A DNA stretch of 64,000 nt from a virus (taxonomy: Duplodnaviria > Caudoviricetes): positions 1 through 64,000 of the IMG/VR virus record IMGVR_UViG_3300005445_000001; one strand, 5' to 3'. Shown piece after piece: positions 1,687 through 44,034 of the stretch. The position numbers and the translations under genes were made by a program. Positions within the stretch are counted from its first letter, which is position 1. Every line of letters starts with the position of its first letter. Under the pieces are notes generated by a model. It made no database searches. It was not told where the DNA came from and was given only the letters and a program-made list of their open reading frames with translations.

Positions 1687-2646
1687 TTGTATGGTGACGG
1701 CGTGCTCTCCGTCGTCGTCGTGCCTTGTTTCCAGCGACCGGAGTTCCTCGCTGCGACCTTATCGCGAGTCGCGATGGCGCGCGGCGCCGAGGACATGCTC
1801 TACCTGTTCTCGCTCGATCGCGACCACGATCCTCGCGTCGTCGAGGTGATCAATGAGCTCATGCCCAGTGATCGGTTCCAGCGACGGATCGCCAAGCGCA
1901 AGCACGAGTATCGCGGCACGGCGTACAACTTCATGGAGACGTACCGCGACGCGTACCTCTGCAAGAGTGAGATCGTCTACACGATCGAGGACGATATCTT
2001 GGTCTCGGAGGACTACTTCGAGTTTCACGAGGCCGCGCACGAGCTCGACGACGAAGCGGTGTGTGTCTCGGCGTGCAGGAATCAAAATCTCGGCCGCAAG
2101 ATCGAGCCCACCGAGAGCTTTTTCTCGGACATTGACTATGCCCGCACGAAGAAGCTCCACGACACGGGCGATCTGAGCGCGGTCTACCGCCACATCAGCT
2201 ACCAGTCGATCGGCGTATCAATGAAGACCGATCTCATGTGCGCGTTCCTCGAGCACGCGTGCCGTGCGTACTACGACAACCAGATCGACTACTGCACGCG
2301 CGTCCTAAACGATCCGGATCTTCCCGCTGGCGCGGCTAGCCAAGACGGGCTGATCCATCGCGTGATGCGCAAAAACTTGTGGTGGACGATCTACCCGTTC
2401 GTGCCGCGCGCCTATCATGCCGGCTTCGTCGGCTTCAACCGTCGCAACGGGCGTCACCTCGCGATGCCGTGGCGCGAGGGGATGGAGCGGATCCTCGAGA
2501 TGAGCGAGCGCGAGATGAACGCCGCCGCCGATCCCGAGTTTGCCGACATCGAACAGTGCGAGCTCGCGCGCTCGGCGCCTGCAGAGCTTCGCGTTGTCGA
2601 GCTGCCGTCTTCTATGTCGACGCGTGCGGAGAAACGCACGCTCTAG
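1687..2646 (+). CDS. GT-A fold glycosyltransferase
   Basis: N-terminal VVVVPCFQRPEFL and acidic metal-binding IEDDILVSEDY motif; start uncertain. Confidence 0.7.
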   Translation: MYGDGVLSVVVVPCFQRPEFLAATLSRVAMARGAEDMLYLFSLDRDHDPRVVEVINELMPSDRFQRRIAKRKHEYRGTAYNFMETYRDAYLCKSEIVYTIEDDILVSEDYFEFHEAAHELDDEAVCVSACRNQNLGRKIEPTESFFSDIDYARTKKLHDTGDLSAVYRHISYQSIGVSMKTDLMCAFLEHACRAYYDNQIDYCTRVLNDPDLPAGAASQDGLIHRVMRKNLWWTIYPFVPRAYHAGFVGFNRRNGRHLAMPWREGMERILEMSEREMNAAADPEFADIEQCELARSAPAELRVVELPSSMSTRAEKRTL

Positions 2647-3253: not shown

Positions 3254-3685
3254 ATGGCTATTACCATCGCTCTTGTGTTTCAGGGTCACAATCGGCTTCG
3301 CTACTTGATGACCGCAGCCGGCGTCGACACCGGTACGATCACCTCGACGGGCGCGGCTTCGCCCGATCTGCTCACCGACTCTCTCAACGGACCGATCAAG
3401 AATATGGCCAAGGCCTTCACTCTTGGTTACGGCCTGTTTGCGGCGGGCGCCTTGACGCAGGCGCAGTCGCGCGCGATCTGGATGGCGGACAACACCGGCG
3501 CGAACGTCGGCAACGCCAACATCCAACGAGCTCGGCCGCGCTTGCTCAAGCGCACGACGATCGCGACCAATTGGCTCGTCGATGCCAACGTCGACGGCCC
3601 CGGCCATCCGACGATCACGGTCTCGGCCGATGGTGCCGGTACGGCGTACCTCGATCTCCTGGTCGACGGCGCGATCGGCGCGTGA
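3254..3685 (+). CDS. Putative structural protein, tandem paralog B
   Basis: AAGGAG RBS at 3240; shares MAKAFTLGYGLFAAGALTQAQSRAIW and WL-DANVDG with paralog A. Confidence 0.7.
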   Translation: MAITIALVFQGHNRLRYLMTAAGVDTGTITSTGAASPDLLTDSLNGPIKNMAKAFTLGYGLFAAGALTQAQSRAIWMADNTGANVGNANIQRARPRLLKRTTIATNWLVDANVDGPGHPTITVSADGAGTAYLDLLVDGAIGA

Positions 3686-35414: not shown

Positions 35415-35921
35415 TTAGGCGGCTCGCGGGAAGTTGAGGCGCGCAAACTCTCCGAACAACTCCATCGCTGCGCGATCATAAGCTAGTGCTGCTTCCTCTC
35501 GCGTATCGTAGGAACCTAAGTTGATCGATCGCCTCCTCGACTTGATCCATGCGCCCCACCGTCTACCACGTTTGGAGACGCCTTTGAATCCTGAAGTGTT
35601 GTGACTCGGCCTAGCGGCATTTTGAAGTTGTTGCTCACGTGTCGCTAACCGCAAATTCGAGCGTCTGCAGTCCAACGGATTCCCGTTCCTGTGATCAACT
35701 TCTTGTGTTGGATAGGCTCCCAAGATCGCGCGCATCACTTCGCGATGTAGATACAACGTAGACCTCTTCCATCTTCGACGACGAACGTAGAATTTCCCAT
35801 GCGTCGACTTCTTGACCTCCCAGTCAATTACAGCAAGGGGCTGATCCTCATCGTCGATCAAAGCAACGACAAGGTGTGATCCGTGCGCGATCTTGATCTC
35901 GATCACGCTGCCCGCGCCCAA
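35415..35921 (-). CDS. HNH-AP2 homing endonuclease
   Basis: [25 protein letters not shown]; AP2-like SGFKGV..WGAWI..LGSY..AALAYD. Confidence 0.9.
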
Positions 35922-38900
35922 GTTTGAGAGATTCGTGATTCGATCGGGAATGGAATCCTATGTCCGTCCCTTTCATACTCTTGAGGAAAGACTCGATCGA
36001 GGTCAGCTTGAAACTTTTCCGCATCATCTTCCCAAACCTCAAATACTGAAGCGTCGTGGACTTGGACGATTGGAAAAGCTTGCTTGTAGCAAGCACACAC
36101 CTCTATCATTCTCTCCATTCCTGTATTCATGATCGCCGCTCCGGTGGCTTGGGGGACAATGTTCAAAGCTTCGTTAGCATCGACATTTCCAAGAGGCCAC
36201 CAGCGCGTGCGACCGTCGACGAAATCGTAGAGTTTGAATGGATACGTGGAGGCCTTGAGCACCGTCTCGCGTTGCCAACGCACGACGCCTGCCATCCGGC
36301 GCATGAGCAAACCAACCGCGCGCTCGACATCAGCAAGCTTGAGATCGTAGCCATCCTTGAGGAGCGTCTTCCACAACGTGTCGATCGACCCACCATAAAA
36401 CGCGCCGTACTCGACATTTTTTGTGACCGAGCGAGCCCGTTTCTGTTCACCCTTGACGAGCTGATCCCAGTTCGTGAAGATCACCTTGGCGCATTCGGTG
36501 TGAACATCCTTGCCGGTCGCAAAGACGTCGAGTAGGAATGGATCGCCAGAGATGATCGCGATGATTCTCGCCTCTAGCTGAGCAAGATCGAAGCTCACAA
36601 ACTTGCGCCCGTGCCGTGCCACAAACTGTCGTTTGCTCGTCGGACGCTCAATCGCTGCGTATGCCTCCCCCTTATCGATGCATCTCTGAATGTCCTCGGG
36701 CTTGACCTTGTAGAACCCTCGAGACACCAAACCCCTTGCGAACAGGTTGGCATCCGTTTCACCCTCAAGTCGAACCGTCTTGATGAGCTCCTTGAGTGGA
36801 TTGGAGACAACCGGATCACGACTTGCCCAGCGGCCAGAGATCTTGTGAGTAGACCAAATGCTATGGCATCGATCGTTCTCGTCGCAGAATCCATACTGAA
36901 TGACGTCACCGCTAGCGGTGTACCGATCGAACATCGGCCAGATGAACGTGCCTAGCGCTTTGTCTTGCTCGCGGTACTTGAGAATGTTCCGAACGATCGG
37001 AAGGTGGGCCAGCGACTCGAGGATCTCTTTCTTCGTCGAGACCTCACCGGTTTCGGTCTTCTGATGGAGGCTCACGCCCATCGCTAGGAGCAACGCCGCA
37101 ATGTGCTTGCCGGCATTGATGTTCCACTTCCAGTCGGACTCGGTCTTCATCTCGCGCAAGCGAGCGTTGTATCGCTCCTCGTAGTCATCGGGATCGTCTT
37201 TGCGCTGCTTGCTCGCTTGCTGAATCGCAAGATGGTGGAAGATCGCTTCACGGATCTTGGGATCGGCTGCGGCATCATCTACCTTGCGACGTTCCTCGGC
37301 AGCGATCTTCGAGAACGAGTTGAGGAGCTCGGTGTTGACCTCACGACTCACCGGCATCCCATCGAGGTGCATCTGGCTCGCGAGCATCGCCATCTTGCGA
37401 TCGCGCTCGTAGACACGCTCGACGTTGTTTTTCTTCACCATGATCTCGAGCGGTGCACGTAGGGCTCGCGTGGCGAAGGTATCAAGCGCGTTGTACGTCG
37501 TCAGCTTTTCGGGCGTCTCCTCAGCATTCCTAAATTCCGACTTCCATGGTTGGATGCAAAAGAACTGCGTGGCGACGTTCTGCAACCGATGGCTCACCCC
37601 AGGAAACGCTGCGTGGTGAGCAAGAAGCGTGTCCGCGAAGCTAGTATCGTTGATGATGAAGCCGTACGCTCGAAACACCGTGTAGTCATAGAGCCCGTTG
37701 TGGAACGTCAATCGGACCTTGCCGAACAGCAGTTGCATCAAGCTGTGCGTCCACGCCGGTAGCAGATCCCACATCACAGAGACGGCACGATGCTCGGTCG
37801 CGAGCCCGAGCGCACGAATGCGAGCGACGTAGGCCATCAGCGCGTGATGACGATCCGGATCCTCGACGTAGGTCTCGAGGTCGATCGCGAGCTCGCCTTC
37901 CTTGAGCGCTTGCTCGAACATCTCGAGGAACAGCCGCAGCGCGCGATCGGCGTCGGTGAATTCGATCTCAATGTTGGGATGGAGCCTAAGGTCATCGCCT
38001 TTAGCGAGCCGATCGACCTTGAGCGCGTCGTACATCAAGTTGACGTAGGCAAGGTCTGGTGAGTGGGTGCCACCTATCGTCGCGCCACCTCCACGCAGTA
38101 GCGCCGCAGGGTGGATTGCGGGTATAAGAGGCCTAGGGCCAGAGCCATCCACATCGACGTCAAACGTCGCTGACATGATGTCGGTGATCTTGATCGGCTT
38201 CTTCTTTTTAGGCTTGACCTTGCCGCCGAGCTTCTTCTTGAGCTCTTTCTCCTTGAGTTTCTCGGCGTAGACGTCTGGTGCATCGGCCTTCACCTTTCGT
38301 TCGATCGCGGCTCGATCCTTCGCCATCTGCGCGATGATGTAGCGCTGGCTCGGCTTCCTACGATGAGCCTTCCAAATCTCATCGCGGATCTGTTTCTCTC
38401 GATAGAGAAGAACCTTCTTGAGGAGCTGCTTTTCGATTTTCTCGATCGCCTTTTTCTGGCGCGCAAGGAGCTTTGCCTCGATGCGCTGACGATCCTTCTG
38501 TCCACGCTTCATCTTCTTCGGCGCATCGGGCGGATCGATCGCGTCGAGCACGGCCTTAGGAATCACCGACCGCGCTGCGACCGCACCGAGCGTCAAGATC
38601 GGCTTGCCGGGCCATTGCGCGAGCTCGCGTCTGAGCCTCTCCTTGCAGGCCTCAGCCGCTTTCTCTCGTAGATGCTCAGCCGATCCATACGGGGGCATGC
38701 AAAGAGTACTGTTAAGGATGGCGACCTGTTCTCGAGGTCGACCGATCTTCGCGAGCAGCTTGTTGACGACTTGCCCAGACTGGCCGACGAATGGCCGTTT
38801 GAGCATGATTTCTGTTCGGCCCGGGCCTTCGCCAATTAGAATCCACTTCGGATTCTCAGGGAACTCAGAGAACACAGGCTTGGTAGGAACCCCGCACGTA

Positions 38901-38992
38901 GAGAACGGACATTCGTCGCACTTGGCTCCATCAGCCGTGCCACGTAGAACCGGAAGCGCAATGCGCTCCGGTGCCGTTTGTGCTGTAGCCAT
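35903..38992 (-). CDS. polA: Family A DNA polymerase with N-terminal uracil-DNA glycosylase and 3'-5' exonuclease domains
   Basis: UDG: [20 protein letters not shown]; exo: IDLET, HNGLYD, YNALD; pol: [22 protein letters not shown]. Confidence 0.95.
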
Positions 38993-38998
38993 TGCTGG

Positions 38999-39559
38999 CT
39001 ATTCGGGCTCTGAGCTCGCGGCTTCGATCTGCCGCACCACGACCGACGAACGGATCCCGAGTGAAGCAGCGAAGCCACCTGGCCAACCATTCGGTGATGG
39101 ACCCGCATCGACTAGCTCGGCGAGCATTTGTGGATCATCCACAAGTCGCGAGCCGCGACGAAGGTACACAACGAGGCGTTCACCAAGATCGACTTGGACA
39201 ATGCGACCAGAGCGCGCGAGCGACTGCAAGTGGTAACGCAGCTGGCGCATCGCCGTGTCTTCGCGTTCGGCGAGCGATCCATACTCATCGAGCACGTCTT
39301 GGTAGATCTCGAAGGAGCGCTTGGGAATCGTGTCGCTCAAGCAAGCCTCGATGAGCTCGTCGAGGATCTCCGAAGAAGATTTCTTCCAAGGCTCGCGCAG
39401 CGGTTCGGTTGGTTTCGTCTTGCGTCTTCGCAAGCACAGTCCATGTGACAGCGCCTTGATCGCAGCTAGCGGCGCATCATGTGCTGGATGAATTTCTTCG
39501 CGGTCGCAGTCCTCGTCACGACAAATCTTCGACGGATCTAGATCCTCTTCTGCGTACAT
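38999..39559 (-). CDS. Hypothetical protein, possible winged helix
   Basis: LRYHLQSLARSGRIVQV. Confidence 0.55.
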   Translation of the reverse strand: MYAEEDLDPSKICRDEDCDREEIHPAHDAPLAAIKALSHGLCLRRRKTKPTEPLREPWKKSSSEILDELIEACLSDTIPKRSFEIYQDVLDEYGSLAEREDTAMRQLRYHLQSLARSGRIVQVDLGERLVVYLRRGSRLVDDPQMLAELVDAGPSPNGWPGGFAASLGIRSSVVVRQIEAASSEPE

Positions 39560-39726: not shown

Positions 39727-40194
39727 CTAAGCCCTCACCCTGGCTGAGATCACCCTATCGAGAATTTTGTGAGATCTCGGTCGAAAGTGATGGTGGAGAT
39801 CGCACGCATCGACACCTCGCCGCACGAACACGTGGCCTCGACGACACGCTCGAACGAGTCCTAGACCACCACCATACGCAAGGTCGGCGCACCATTCATT
39901 GCCGCGACAGATCGACAGCCACTGCTTCCAGTGCACCGCTCCGGTCAAGTAGCCACCGACGAGCGACGTCTCGAACCTTGAGCACGGCGATCGATGAGGA
40001 ACTGGTGTCAACGCTCCGCAGCTCACGCGGCCTCCAGGTTCACGCGTGATGACGTTCGCCGTGAACCTCGACTCGTGCCATGCGATCGCGAGCAACCGCT
40101 CGTGAGACACGCCCGTGATGAGCTCGGCGAACCGTGCAGCCGCTTCGTGATCGCGTGGAGAGGATAGGAACAGACACAAGATGAAGATTTTCAT
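39727..40194 (-). CDS. Lytic transglycosylase-like secreted protein
   Basis: Signal-like N-terminus; LLAIAWHESRF resembles SLT catalytic ES motif. Confidence 0.55.
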   Translation of the reverse strand: MKIFILCLFLSSPRDHEAAARFAELITGVSHERLLAIAWHESRFTANVITREPGGRVSCGALTPVPHRSPCSRFETSLVGGYLTGAVHWKQWLSICRGNEWCADLAYGGGLGLVRACRRGHVFVRRGVDACDLHHHFRPRSHKILDRVISARVRA

Positions 40195-40210
40195 CTTGCC
40201 TACATAACGC

Positions 40211-40497
40211 AACGGGCCCGCCTAGGCGAGCCCGTTTCGTGCCTCTCGATGGTCAGTCTTCTAGGCTGAATCTCTCACAGGCCATCGTCCCGTGCTACGT
40301 GGGAGCCTGTTCCACTCGCAGGCAACTATAGATCCTTCGATCGACGCTCGTGAAGCTAGTGAATCAGCTTGCGCTGCCGATGGTGTTCCACCGAGTCACG
40401 AACGGCTGTCCCGGGTTGCTGAAAAGGATCGTCGACGGTGATTGGCTGTCTCCAGCCATTGGTGAGGGAGTTGTCTTGCGATGAGATCACCATCGAC
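40211..40497 (-). ncRNA. Candidate structured non-coding RNA
   Basis: Nested stems, GAGA and GCAA tetraloops, and three + strand C-A mismatches that become G-U pairs on the minus strand. Confidence 0.6.
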
Positions 40498-40504
40498 GAA
40501 AACG

Positions 40505-41053
40505 TTACGCGCGACGAGCAGCGCCCGCGGTGCTGTTCGCCGGCTTCGCTGCCGGCGCTGCAGCCTTCCCCTTGTTCGCAACCGGCGGCGTCGCTGCCGG
40601 AGCCGCTGCCGCTGGCGCATCCTCGAGCGGGCGCTCGGAGACGACGTTCGCGAACGTCTTGGCTTCCTGCATCTGGCCCGTCGCCGGGTCGACGCGCGCA
40701 TCACCTTGGCGATGAACGATCGTCGCGCGAAGCCGCGCGCCCATGATCTCCGACGCCCGGAACTTGTCGAGCGACGCGCCGCACGCAACCATGAGGGTCT
40801 TCAGACGACCCCATGACTGCTTGAGCAGCGAGTAGTTCCCCCACGCGCGCGAGCCAGCATGCGGACTGTCCGAATCCTCGGGGACCTGAAACGTCACCAC
40901 GATCATCGGGTTGTTCTTGCTCGATGGCTTCTGCTCGACTTTGATCACGTCGAACGTGTAGTCACCGGGCGGGATGAGCTGGAAGCTTCCATCCATCTCG
41001 GGGACGTCGGTCAGGTCGATCTCTACTTCGAAATCTGCGAATTCTGCGGCCAT
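40505..41053 (-). CDS. DUF669 family ssDNA-binding-like protein
   Basis: AGGAG RBS; LIPPGDYTFDV..SSKNNPMIVVTF. Confidence 0.8.
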   Translation of the reverse strand: MAAEFADFEVEIDLTDVPEMDGSFQLIPPGDYTFDVIKVEQKPSSKNNPMIVVTFQVPEDSDSPHAGSRAWGNYSLLKQSWGRLKTLMVACGASLDKFRASEIMGARLRATIVHRQGDARVDPATGQMQEAKTFANVVSERPLEDAPAAAAPAATPPVANKGKAAAPAAKPANSTAGAARRA

Positions 41054-41075: not shown

Positions 41076-41960
41076 CTACTTGCGAACGATAGCCGGCGCG
41101 GATCCACCGCTCGCGGCCTTGGAAACTTGCTTGATGACGATCGGCGGTTGCGCGGCCTTCGCTGCAACGGGCGGCGTCGCGGGCGCAGCTACGGTGATCG
41201 ATGAGAACCTAGGCGTTGCAGCGATCTTCGGCAACGCAGCACGAAGCGCGCCGACGTCGTAGCCAAGCTCGGTGAGAAATGTCGAATAGGTGCCGACCAG
41301 CGGATCAGGTGGCATCGCGCGATCGCTCATTCCTCGACGGTGACCGACGAGGTAGCTCGCGTAGCGCTTCGTGCGAACCTCGAACTTGGTGCCGTTGACG
41401 CGCGAATACCAGATGTAGTCACACGCCCCAGCAATCTGATCCTTGGCTCGTCCAGCGATCAGCGGCTTGCCAAGCGGCTCGTCTTCACTTGGATCTTGAA
41501 CGAGCGCCAGCCAAACCACGTTGACGCCCAAGGAGTGAAGATCAACGCGAACCTGTCTCATGTGCGCGCCAAGGTCACCATACGCACGACGATTGTCCGC
41601 CTTAGTCATCGCACCCATGATCGTCGCGAGCGCGAGCTCGGCGTAGAACGTCGCCGAGTCGATACCGATGGTCAACACACGACCCGACGCGATAAGTTGC
41701 TTGAGCCGCGGGATCGCCTGCGTCTTGATGTCGCCGGTGTTCTCGATCGCCCACACGATCGGCTTCACGCCGGGCTCGAACAGGTGTTCGTCTGGGATGT
41801 CGATCAGCGACTCCCAACCTTTCTCCGTCGAGTCGGAGAGGATCAACGGACGCGGGAAGCTCGCAAGGAATGTGGTCTTGCCAGTGCGCAACGCCCCATA
41901 GATCAGGAACGTATTGATCGGCAGCTTGTTCTCGTCGGCGACCAGATCGATCTCACGCAT
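41076..41960 (-). CDS. AAA_24 / Sak4-like ATPase
   Basis: LIYGALRTGKTT Walker A; IGIDSAT Walker B. Confidence 0.8.
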   Translation of the reverse strand: MREIDLVADENKLPINTFLIYGALRTGKTTFLASFPRPLILSDSTEKGWESLIDIPDEHLFEPGVKPIVWAIENTGDIKTQAIPRLKQLIASGRVLTIGIDSATFYAELALATIMGAMTKADNRRAYGDLGAHMRQVRVDLHSLGVNVVWLALVQDPSEDEPLGKPLIAGRAKDQIAGACDYIWYSRVNGTKFEVRTKRYASYLVGHRRGMSDRAMPPDPLVGTYSTFLTELGYDVGALRAALPKIAATPRFSSITVAAPATPPVAAKAAQPPIVIKQVSKAASGGSAPAIVRK

Positions 41961-42444
41961 TGCGCTGCTTCCTTCGCGGACCACGCCCACGCGCGGCGAC
42001 GTTGTGCACCGCGTGCACCTCTTGGATCGCGCACCGCTCGTCACGGCACGGAACGAAATCAGGGTTGTCGAGCAAGTCATCCTCGCTTGGAGGAACTGGC
42101 TGATCGATGTGTAGTTGACGGTTGTCCATTGCCCCGTTCAAGGGTTGTATCACCTCATGGGGAGACTTCAGGGCCTTCATCATTTTTCCGTTCTCGAGAC
42201 TGAGCTCATACACCTCTTTAGCCAACCTCGACGAGTACTCCTTCAAATGAACCACTTGACCCTGAAGCTCTAGAACCTGCTTCTGCAGATCGTTGGTCTC
42301 ATAGACCCGAGGCGCGTAGTCGCCGATCCCGGTCCGCCACGCGATCAGCTCGCGAATCAATTCGACCGGATCATCCTCGATTTGATCCTTGTAGTTTGGG
42401 TCATGAAGGTAGAGGAAGCGCTTCGCACGCTCTACCGGATTCAT
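41953..42444 (-). CDS. Coiled-coil hypothetical protein
   Basis: Heptad-rich middle. Confidence 0.55.
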   Translation of the reverse strand: MNPVERAKRFLYLHDPNYKDQIEDDPVELIRELIAWRTGIGDYAPRVYETNDLQKQVLELQGQVVHLKEYSSRLAKEVYELSLENGKMMKALKSPHEVIQPLNGAMDNRQLHIDQPVPPSEDDLLDNPDFVPCRDERCAIQEVHAVHNVAARGRGPRRKQRNA

Positions 42445-42659: not shown

Positions 42660-42916
42660 CCGGGATCCTCTAATTCTCGACGGTTGATCTTGTTCGGCTT
42701 GCTCACTAGCTTGATGCGTGAGTCAGGAACGCCCAAGATTCGCCACGTTGAAGTCTTGCCATTGAATTCGACCTTGATCAGCTCTGCATCATCGTGAAGT
42801 CGAACCCAATGTCCCTTGTCGGGCTCGAGCCCAACGTACGTAGCGCGCTCCCACTTGCACCAACGATGCGTGTTGCGCCGAACCCAAACGAGTTGACCTT
42901 CGGTGAAGCTCTTCAC
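42656..42916 (-). CDS. Hypothetical protein (SH3/Tudor-like pattern)
   Basis: FTEGQLVWVR..WERAT. Confidence 0.5.
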   Translation of the reverse strand: MKSFTEGQLVWVRRNTHRWCKWERATYVGLEPDKGHWVRLHDDAELIKVEFNGKTSTWRILGVPDSRIKLVSKPNKINRRELEDPG

Positions 42917-44034
42917 GATTCACCCGAACTGCAGTGGTTGAACTCTTGGCACGTGCCGAAGCGGTTCGCACAATTGTTGCGGGCTCGCGGCCAACTGTTA
43001 TTGGCCCTCGAGAGCTGGATCAGTCCTTCCCACCGTCGAAGATCTTCCTTGTGCTGCTCGAGTTGGAAGCTCGTCGGAGCCACTAGCGTACGATGAAATT
43101 GTGGCTCCTTTTGCGTGCCGCAGAGATTCATGATCACGCCTTGGAGCTCACCGAACCGCTTGTCTAGGCCAAGCCGCTTCCAAAGCATCACCTGACCCAA
43201 CACCTCCCCGTCATTTCCCCAGCCGTTTACGAAGAAGTCGTCAAAGCGACCTGAGCTCTTGTGCTCGACGATGTACGTCCCTGCAGGTCGACCTTCGATC
43301 GCCTCGGCGTAGAACCCAACCAAGTCGAACCGGCATGATTCGTTCGTGCGCGGATCACGAAGGTTGTACTCCACAGCAAGCGTCTGGATCGGATCGTGTT
43401 GGTACAGAAACGTGTAGAGGTAGAAGACGCGGTAGCCTTCATCGACGAGTGCCGGATCTGCCTCGGAGCGCATCCGATCGCGAAACGTCTCCGGCGTGAG
43501 TGGATAGTCCGGCTTGATCGTCCGTAGGTACCAGATCGCGAGCAGCGCGTGGATGATCGAGCCGATCGCCAGCGCCGGAGACTCCTTGTAGCTCGGCGTC
43601 GACGTTGAGACATAGACCGTCGGCCGATCGTACTTCCGTTTCCACAGATACGGACAACGTTGGTAGACGCCAAACGAGCTCCAACCTCGTCCGGTTGATG
43701 CACCACCAAGACGCGGCACGTTGTGCTCGGCAAACGCCTTGTGCATCACGCTATCGACCGTTGGGTAGACGGTGACAGGAACCGCGAGCTCGGAGAGAAA
43801 GTCGTCGTCGGAACCTTGAGGCTGAGACGGATCTTCAAGATCCTCTTCTTCGATGGCGACGCCGAACCGATCGGTGAACTTGACGAGACAGCCGTTCGCT
43901 TTGTTGGCCGCGTTGGGATGAATCTGGAAGCCGTTCGTGCGCGCGTAGTCGCTCGATGCAGGCCAGAGCTTGCGACCGCAGAGCAAACAATTCGACTTGA
44001 TCACGTTCATCTGAAGTTGTCGTCTCCATCCCAT
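42913..44034 (-). CDS. PD-(D/E)XK (Cas4/RecB-like) nuclease
   Basis: CPYLW, RFDLV, IVEHKSS, C-terminal CANRFGTCQEFNHC. Confidence 0.8.
   Translation of the reverse strand: MGWRRQLQMNVIKSNCLLCGRKLWPASSDYARTNGFQIHPNAANKANGCLVKFTDRFGVAIEEEDLEDPSQPQGSDDDFLSELAVPVTVYPTVDSVMHKAFAEHNVPRLGGASTGRGWSSFGVYQRCPYLWKRKYDRPTVYVSTSTPSYKESPALAIGSIIHALLAIWYLRTIKPDYPLTPETFRDRMRSEADPALVDEGYRVFYLYTFLYQHDPIQTLAVEYNLRDPRTNESCRFDLVGFYAEAIEGRPAGTYIVEHKSSGRFDDFFVNGWGNDGEVLGQVMLWKRLGLDKRFGELQGVIMNLCGTQKEPQFHRTLVAPTSFQLEQHKEDLRRWEGLIQLSRANNSWPRARNNCANRFGTCQEFNHCSSGES

Follow-up and report, generated by a model that had tools for sequence, protein, structure and literature searches.

Conserved RNA structures 3′ of one gene have been described before. 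The Mu-gpT-DE motif lies after the major head gene of Mu-like phages and the L17DE motif after rplQ; both are presumably included in Rfam 15, and, like the element described here, they are known only from covariation and have no assigned function. The two motifs are smaller and simpler, whereas the element combines a multi-helix junction with a pseudoknot and some 40 invariant positions, and neither has a sequence or structure match to it (Rfam 15, E up to 10). Two phage RNAs act in cis to determine the output of a neighboring recombination or replication gene: sib of phage lambda lies 3′ of its gene at the terminator and is a plain RNase III hairpin, while in phage T4 the SSB (gp32) binds a pseudoknot in its own mRNA, 5′ of gene 32. 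These may be functional analogues of the element, although they share neither its sequence nor its fold. The put RNA of phage HK022, about 70 nt with two stem-loops, is made soon after an early promoter and renders RNA polymerase terminator-resistant. Small ribozymes are often found between phage genes, and complex orphan RNAs have repeatedly proved to be riboswitches, ribozymes or parts of RNA-protein machines. From IMG/VR viruses, Fremin et al. 2023 reported 8,495 csRNAs of 29-151 nt (PMC10690425). DUF669 proteins are SSBs that act with an adjacent AAA recombinase, and in 2026 DUF669 and its AAA partner were shown to repair phage DNA cut by CRISPR (PMC13687109).

The DNA analyzed here, called the window, covers 64,000 nt of an IMG/VR virus record that is 85,650 bp long and has direct terminal repeats. 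All genes around the element lie on the minus strand. They encode a PD-(D/E)XK nuclease (42913-44034), an AAA_24 recombinase-like protein (41076-42080), an SSB-type DUF669 protein (40505-41053; Pfam PF05037, E 4.7e-07), a 155-aa protein with a signal-peptide-like N-terminus (39727-40194; Pfam SLT, E 0.0045, below the cut-off), an HTH protein (38999-39559), and a UDG-PolA fusion (35903-38992). The true start of the DUF669 gene is at 41053, and the resulting 182-aa form agrees with database relatives; its stop codon (40505-40507) lies directly 5′ of the RNA element. The SLT-like protein has homologues, and the start of its gene at 40194 marks the 3′ limit of the RNA, the gene itself being outside. 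A perfect 9-bp hairpin, CAAGAUGAA-AAUC-UUCAUCUUG (40177-40198, minus strand), lies 12 nt past the terminal hairpin of the RNA and contains the AUG of the SLT-like gene (40192-40194). Judging from this pairing, the start codon may be sequestered.

The gap between the DUF669 and SLT-like genes (40195-40504) has stop codons in every minus-strand frame, and a search for a conserved ORF across all seven homologous sequences found no frame open in every one, so that a small protein-coding gene is supported neither in the window nor across the seven. As RNA, the minus strand of the whole gap folds at -122.5 kcal/mol, with a z-score of -3.09 against shuffles, and the plus strand has a z-score of -1.62. 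The sequence-only reading had placed a structured RNA with several domains and about 290 nt on this minus strand and had asked whether it folds better than shuffled controls, which it does (-3.1 for the minus and -1.6 for the plus strand, rounded). Two hairpins were also scored separately, at 40428-40500 (z -6.0 for the minus and -3.3 for the plus strand) and 40205-40240 (z -4.2). The most conserved part, the 3′ domain, has a z-score of only -0.2 when folded alone, no better than shuffles, and is therefore revealed only by comparison. In the window, the consensus nested fold amounts to -105.7 kcal/mol, pseudoknot uncounted, versus -114.6 kcal/mol for the minimum free energy (MFE) structure; the MFE structure of 40205-40504 includes P1, P1a, P1b, the 5′ hairpin and the terminal hairpin, which are described below.

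Is this RNA also present in other viruses? Syntenic loci were reached via DUF669 homologues and their contigs. Six further members were found, all in uncultured viruses (L013, L018, L024, L026, L121, and L122, with the groupings L018/L019/L025 and L024/L108). I refer to this RNA family, which in the window occupies 40211-40504 of the minus strand, as the DUF669 downstream element. In all seven cases, the element is on the strand of the genes and starts immediately 3′ of the DUF669 stop codon. From there to the first helix, P1, are 5-9 nt, or an extra hairpin domain in the window and in L013. The latter is a Logan contig of 54 kb; its DUF669 gene is followed by a gap of 580 nt, in which two blocks share 82% identity with the gap of the window. 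A covariance model (R1) built from the 3′ domain gives the seven members 90-111 bits and everything else 18.6 bits or less, and each positive viral genome has one copy of the element.

The conserved core is about 190 nt in length and consists of a multi-helix junction closed by P1, the P2 hairpin, the S1 and S2 stems, and a pseudoknot that joins the S2 loop to the 3′ tail; all coordinates refer to the minus strand of the window. P1 (GCAAC 40415-40419 with GUUGC 40322-40326) closes the junction and is paired at 100% in the seven sequences of the full-core alignment A2. In L013, P1 is AACGC/GCGUU, making four of the five pairs compensatory, and the covariation of P1 is confined to this sequence. 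Between the P1 strands, every member has the same order: the junction strand CCCGGGACA (40407-40415), whose columns are invariant in alignment A2, then P1a, then P1b. When every sequence was folded separately, P1a (40343-40406) emerged as a variable compound helix, the first helix of which folds independently at the same place in 7/7 while its sequence is not conserved. In the window, P1a is a 9-bp stem (40396-40404 with 40345-40353) capped by two hairpins, one of which has a GCAA loop. P1b is a small hairpin, GAUC-GAAG-GAUC in the window (40331-40342), and each sequence folded alone forms one in 7/7, 3-4 nt ahead of the P1 3′ strand (4 nt in the window). The P1b stems differ (GAUC, GCU/AGC, GGGC/GCCC, GCCAC/GUGGC, GAGC/GCUC, and GACGU/ACGUC), and the loops are mostly GNRA-like.

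P2 pairs GCGAGUGG (40312-40319) with CCACGUAGC (40294-40302) through 8 pairs, of which 5 have double changes, with 85.7% of cells paired. Its 9-nt loop is AACAGGCUC (40303-40311), and the closing G together with the loop reads GAACNGGC, which is invariant. A joining strand, ACGGGA (40288-40293), follows; its ACG and final A do not vary (columns 40-42 and 45 of alignment A1). The S1/S2 domain (40247-40287) comes next. S1 (CGAUGG 40282-40287 with CCAUCG 40247-40252) has 6 pairs, 100% paired, 5 of them compensatory, and occurs as CGAUGG/CCAUCG, CCUAGA/UCUAGG, GCGUGC/GCACGC, GUGGGC/GCCCAC, and GCCCGU/ACGGGC. S2 (UUC 40268-40270 with GAA 40259-40261) has 3 pairs, 100% paired and all compensatory. 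The two stems are separated by a 5′ internal loop, CCUGUGAGAGA (40271-40281), and a 3′ internal loop, GACUGA (40253-40258), in which the blocks UGUGAGAGA and GACUG are invariant. Finally, the S2 loop (GCCU 40263-40266) forms a pseudoknot with AGGC (40241-40244) just 3′ of S1. Its 5 pairs are in register in 7/7, with 94.3% of cells paired and all 5 compensatory. L121 and L122 are otherwise identical in the 3′ domain, and between them the pseudoknot changes from GGGGG/CCCCC to AAUGG/CCAUU and S2 from UAG/CUA to UUG/CAA. In total, about 40 unpaired nucleotides are invariant among freely covarying helices, in the blocks CCCGGGACA, GAACNGGC (P2 closing G and loop), ACG..A, UGUGAGAGA, and GACUG. A tertiary pairing of GGUUCU in the 5′ flank with GAACC in the P2 loop is possible, and its sides are invariant or change without co-variation.

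The pairing was assessed over the only seven sequences known, which come from six lineages. In the nearly gap-free MAFFT alignment of the 3′ domain (A1), in which P2, S1, S2 and the pseudoknot were tested, 93.4% of cells are paired and 18 of 22 pairs have double changes; none of 500 shuffles scored as high, and sliding the 3′ partners by 1-3 columns left 30-44% paired. With P1 added, 94.6% of cells are paired over 27 pairs (again 0/500 shuffles as high, and 31-46% after sliding). Both the collection of homologues and the covariation test had been suggested by the sequence-only reading; with six homologues and double changes in 22 of the 27 pairs, five helices including the pseudoknot prove to be kept compensatorily, and the proposed structured minus-strand RNA is confirmed. 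RNAalifold, run independently, recovers P2, S1 and S2.

Covariation alone leaves the strand unfixed (2 G-U versus 1 A-C cells). The earlier argument for the minus strand, that C-A mismatches on the plus strand become G-U and that loops become GNRA, stands: three minus-strand G-U pairs are C-A on the plus strand, and the GNRA loops are exclusive to the minus strand. Since the element directly follows the stop codon, its relatives have U-tract terminators on the same strand, and the G-U and GNRA pattern agrees, the RNA is assigned to the minus strand.

Two parts of the structure outside the core are worth describing. The optional 5′ hairpin domain (40429-40499; MFE, z -6.0) is limited to the window and L013. 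It has a 14-bp closing stem (40486-40499 with 40429-40442) with one G-U pair and the apical hairpin UGGCUG-GAGA-CAGCCA (40443-40458). Its L013 counterpart has an 11-bp closing helix with the same UCGUCGA/UCGACGA, in which one base pair is deleted on both sides. At the other end, the window has a terminal GC-rich hairpin of 11-12 bp with one G-U pair (40211-40236; z -4.2), which occupies the place of the intrinsic terminators of its relatives. It is followed by GCGUUAUGU without a U tract and was not called by a terminator scan; the next AUG is 16 nt on. L013 (3840-3869) and L026 (762-789) have canonical intrinsic terminators, each followed by UCUUUUCGGG, a few bases past the element. L018 and L024 have a hairpin and a U run at this place by eye, that of L018 not being called by the scan. 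In five sequences the pseudoknot 3′ strand lies 3-7 nt ahead of the terminator stem. In L121 and L122 the hairpin with a U run (by eye) comes only about 200 nt after the pseudoknot. The inserted ~200 nt (L121 ~2285-2480, L122 ~2280-2500) are themselves structured, with a 10-bp long-range helix GUUGUUGAUC/GAUCGACAAC, and are the 3′ equivalent of the optional 5′ hairpin that the window and L013 have. The octamer (U)CGAYGGU(G) occurs at 40246-40253, 40378-40385, 40433-40440, and 40488-40495, and serves three helices of the window: the 5′ stem, the P1a apex and S1. One strand of the 5′ stem is complementary (8/8) to the S1 3′ strand. This is probably a coincidence, because it is not conserved in L013.

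Comparison with the relatives also sorts the stems listed by the sequence-only reading, all of which are complementary in the window but only about half of which are right. The 12-bp stem 40431-40442/40486-40497 exists, as the 14-bp stem 40429-40442/40486-40499, and has its L013 counterpart. The hairpins UGGCUG-GAGA-CAGCCA and CAGC-GCAA-GCUG and the hairpin 40211-40236 are likewise present. The 9-bp stem 40345-40353/40396-40404 lies where each relative folds its own P1a, and 40247-40252/40282-40287 is none other than S1, with its strong covariation. Two long-range stems, however, are unsupported by the relatives. The stem 40240-40244/40320-40324 has 48.6% of cells paired across the homologues, as do the slid controls; its 3′ arm forms the pseudoknot instead. 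As for the stem 40331-40337/40424-40430, the segment 40331-40342 is the local hairpin P1b in 7/7, and the 5′ partner is absent from the five homologues without the 5′ domain. P1, P2, S2 and the pseudoknot were not part of that earlier fold.

No Rfam 15 family accounts for this RNA. The 64-kb window has no match at gathering thresholds among the 4,227 covariance models of Rfam 15, in agreement with the earlier statement that the family was not recognized. With E up to 10, the element matched only through its terminal hairpin, to STnc320 at 17 bits (50 needed), and five homologous loci gave no match over the element. Resemblances to TPP (CUGAGA, GAACCUGAUC), ykkC (CCCGGGAGA, ACACGG), and cobalamin motifs were rejected; the order of elements differs and there is no Rfam match. 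No literature was found on DUF669 together with a structured RNA. The csRNAs of Fremin et al. come from the same data source (IMG/VR contigs) and the same type of evidence; going by the description in that paper, which does not mention DUF669, the ~190-nt core is longer than any entry, and part of the element could be among its candidates (PMC10690425). I class it as a new RNA family among the orphan gene-downstream structured RNAs already known from phages.

The element is not universal among DUF669 loci. With filters off, the R1 model found none in eleven other DUF669-related loci (L002, L021, L023, L119, L120, L123, L147-L149, L158, and L159), and the element is thus dispensable. L021, L023, L119, L120, and L158 have the stop codon, a short spacer, and a hairpin with a U run, and L123 has no clear terminator after the stop codon. 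On a poorly resolved DUF669 tree, the presence of the element needs about three changes, which may represent a single origin with later losses. A 14.5-bit match of the model in the L002 genome lacks CCCGGGACA and GACUG and was discarded as chance. In L002, a 96-aa ORF (2615-2905), unlike the RNA, fills the slot held by the RNA in the window, between a 225-aa ORF that takes the place of DUF669 without detectable similarity to it and an SLT-like homologue (61% identical).

Wider searches suggested that the family is rare. A blastn search against GenBank phages gave no match, and single-protein locus searches in IMG/VR (DUF669, PolA) yielded no relatives. Two exact-pattern scans of GTDB returned 101 loci, none above 18.6 bits, with no prophage copy in ~185,000 species genomes. 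A metagenome pattern scan gave one true match, the source contig of L024, and 11 unrelated ones, and the IMG/VR pattern ACGGGAC...CTGTGAGAG gave only chance matches in coding DNA. Since the exact-pattern scans revealed no further member in 2.9 million IMG/VR contigs, JGI metagenomes and ~185,000 species genomes, the family so far belongs to one lineage of uncultured viruses (78-138 kb). A scan with a 16-mer of block A likewise hit unrelated DNA only, including a tRNA-like array in L163. There, at ~1780-1900 (minus strand of the locus) of an unrelated viral contig, the exact 16-mer UGCAACCCGGGACAAG lies inside an apparent shortened tRNA-Cys(GCA)-like unit followed by a T-arm, and the match was treated as chance. 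The peat metagenome contigs L111, L113, and L116 share GGAACCGGCGCCCUGGGCGCGACGGACUCCGGCGCCUGUGAGAGGAGG, which has internal complementarity (GGCGCC...GGCGCC) and bears no relation to the DUF669 element, L111 scoring 11 bits and neither L113 nor L116 being listed at E 1. From its sequence, this stretch could be another structured RNA or a repeat.

The DNA past the DUF669 terminator has features of its own. L018, L021, L023, L119, and L120 have DnaA-box-like TGTGGATAA/CTGTGGA repeats and AGATCT/GAGATCTC palindromes, and a conserved A-tract followed by GTTGC that looks like a promoter, of which L121 and L122 have a variant. The regions with these features lie at 3750-4000 in L018, ~2560-2800 in L121 and L122, ~3150-3300 in L021, and ~1470-1560 in L023; L013 has only GATC sites and an A-tract-CTTGC site. 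These motifs suggest that the region may be a replication origin with a middle promoter. This DnaA-box-like, GATC-rich, promoter-like region is found in relatives with or without the RNA; since those without it keep the region, the two are separable. L018, alone among the relatives, has a tRNA-Lys(CTT) ~130 nt past the terminator of the RNA (3362-3438; ARAGORN; Rfam tRNA 26.3 bits, just sub-threshold).

These results make it very likely that the RNA structure is real, is under selection and represents a new family. What does it do? From its surroundings I infer its transcription and 3′ end: it would be the 3′ tail of the PDDEXK - AAA_24 - DUF669 transcript, because its strand is that of the genes, no promoter inside it is conserved, and a canonical or near-canonical intrinsic terminator follows closely in the relatives examined. 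Among the homologues, no own promoter is conserved; the sole consensus match inside the element (TTCACG-18-TATAGT, 40354-40325) is conserved in no homologue and was rejected. In the window, the RNA could equally be a 5′ leader, because there is no U tract at the terminal hairpin and the next gene starts directly behind it. Taken as a whole, the data are probably best explained by an uncatalogued DUF669 downstream element, an operon 3′ tail that may act in cis.

A cis role is the first choice because the element is always attached to the end of DUF669 while the downstream genes vary. The pattern of conservation suits an RNA with a specific binding pocket or an active site. The invariant unpaired nucleotides would shape a particular pocket or surface in three dimensions to which a factor binds, possibly the SSB-type DUF669 protein or its AAA_24 recombinase, and in a cis role the element would act on the stability, 3′ processing or translation feedback of the DUF669-operon mRNA. 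By analogy with the phage RNAs mentioned above, I propose this cis-acting, factor-binding mechanism on a recombination operon tentatively; the dispensability of the element agrees with an accessory function no less well than with autoregulation. There is a substantial, if minority, chance that the element stands for a functional class of RNA that is new, with a previously undescribed fold, and is either catalytic or a regulator that senses a ligand or a protein. It would then be an add-on to the SSB/recombinase (Healer-type) module of large uncultured viruses that might tune or protect the expression of the recombination genes during host defence.

The RNA might instead work in trans. A stable noncoding RNA could be processed from the operon 3′ end and end at the shared terminator, serving in an accessory role such as an anti-defence decoy or a binder of a host protein or host RNA. 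Its patchy presence among close relatives, with at least three gains or losses on the DUF669 tree, is typical of accessory or counter-defence functions; it ends at a terminator like 3′-UTR-derived sRNAs, and its conserved loops are exposed. Nevertheless, it occupies the same place after the DUF669 stop codon in 7/7, no conserved promoter or processing site was seen, and the fold is far more elaborate than those of seed-pairing sRNAs. In phage genomes, moreover, sites complementary to two conserved single strands, the P2 loop and CCCGGGACAAG, are at the control level without excess. A trans-acting RNA is thus rather doubtful.

The conservation pattern resembles that of riboswitch aptamers, which like the element have invariant junction and loop nucleotides, covarying helices, a pseudoknot 3′ strand just before an intrinsic terminator, and a size of 100-200 nt. 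A riboswitch-like or put-like element might sense a ligand or modify RNA polymerase and thereby control terminator read-through into the replication genes (HTH, UDG-PolA). The closeness of the pseudoknot to the terminator stem in five sequences would suit this, as would the window, where the order of RNA, hairpin, 16 nt and AUG is that of a leader. The conserved aptamer is there, with invariant junctions and loops among covarying helices and the pseudoknot, but a 5′-leader location with a terminator/antiterminator or RBS platform is not, the window alone being ambiguous: the element otherwise lies at the operon end rather than in a leader. By inspection, no antiterminator pairing is consistent across the homologues, and neither an association with metabolic genes nor an Rfam riboswitch match was found. 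In the relatives, the terminator and the next gene are several hundred bases apart, and in five of them this interval contains the DnaA-box-like repeats and the A-tract/GTTGC promoter-like site. Furthermore, the pseudoknot is ~200 nt from the terminator in L121 and L122, and relatives without the RNA keep the same terminator. With put, the element shares only the position upstream of a terminator; it follows three or more genes, not a promoter. Control of read-through is therefore unlikely.

A self-cleaving ribozyme of a new class that cuts the operon transcript near its 3′ end is more improbable still. The compact pseudoknotted core with invariant internal-loop nucleotides (UGUGAGAGA, GACUG) would suit catalysis, and small ribozymes are common between phage genes. 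However, none of the Rfam models of self-cleaving ribozymes (hammerhead, twister, twister-sister, pistol, hatchet, HDV-like, and glmS) matches even at E up to 10, and the topology, nested S1/S2 with a loop-to-tail pseudoknot and a separate junction domain, is not known from the hammerhead, twister, pistol, hatchet or HDV-like folds.

Least of all do I favor a DNA-level element (a replication origin, iterons, or a single-stranded DNA fold used in recombination): covariation alone separates neither RNA from single-stranded DNA nor the two strands, 120 bp here contain 3 copies of CGAYGGTG versus 22 in the whole 64 kb, and DnaA-box-like repeats lie in the same intergenic region of several relatives with or without the RNA, but the octamer is not conserved in the homologues and forms arms of helices whose sequence changes freely, the window has neither a DnaA-box cluster near the element nor a GC skew turn at it, and the pseudoknot, GNRA loops and G-U pairs fit RNA. 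The iteron reading of the CGAYGGTG cluster was rejected on the same ground, the octamers being helix arms that are changed in relatives; the octamer is over-represented in the window as a whole (22 copies versus 7.9 expected).

The importance of the DUF669 downstream element is bounded by the rarity of the family (seven sequences so far), its restriction to uncultured viruses, and a functional lead that is its position alone. For the search for such RNAs, its conserved core is a case that thermodynamic screens alone would overlook. An RNA partner or regulator of the DUF669-AAA module would be new biology, and it could matter for phage-editing tools that build on this module.
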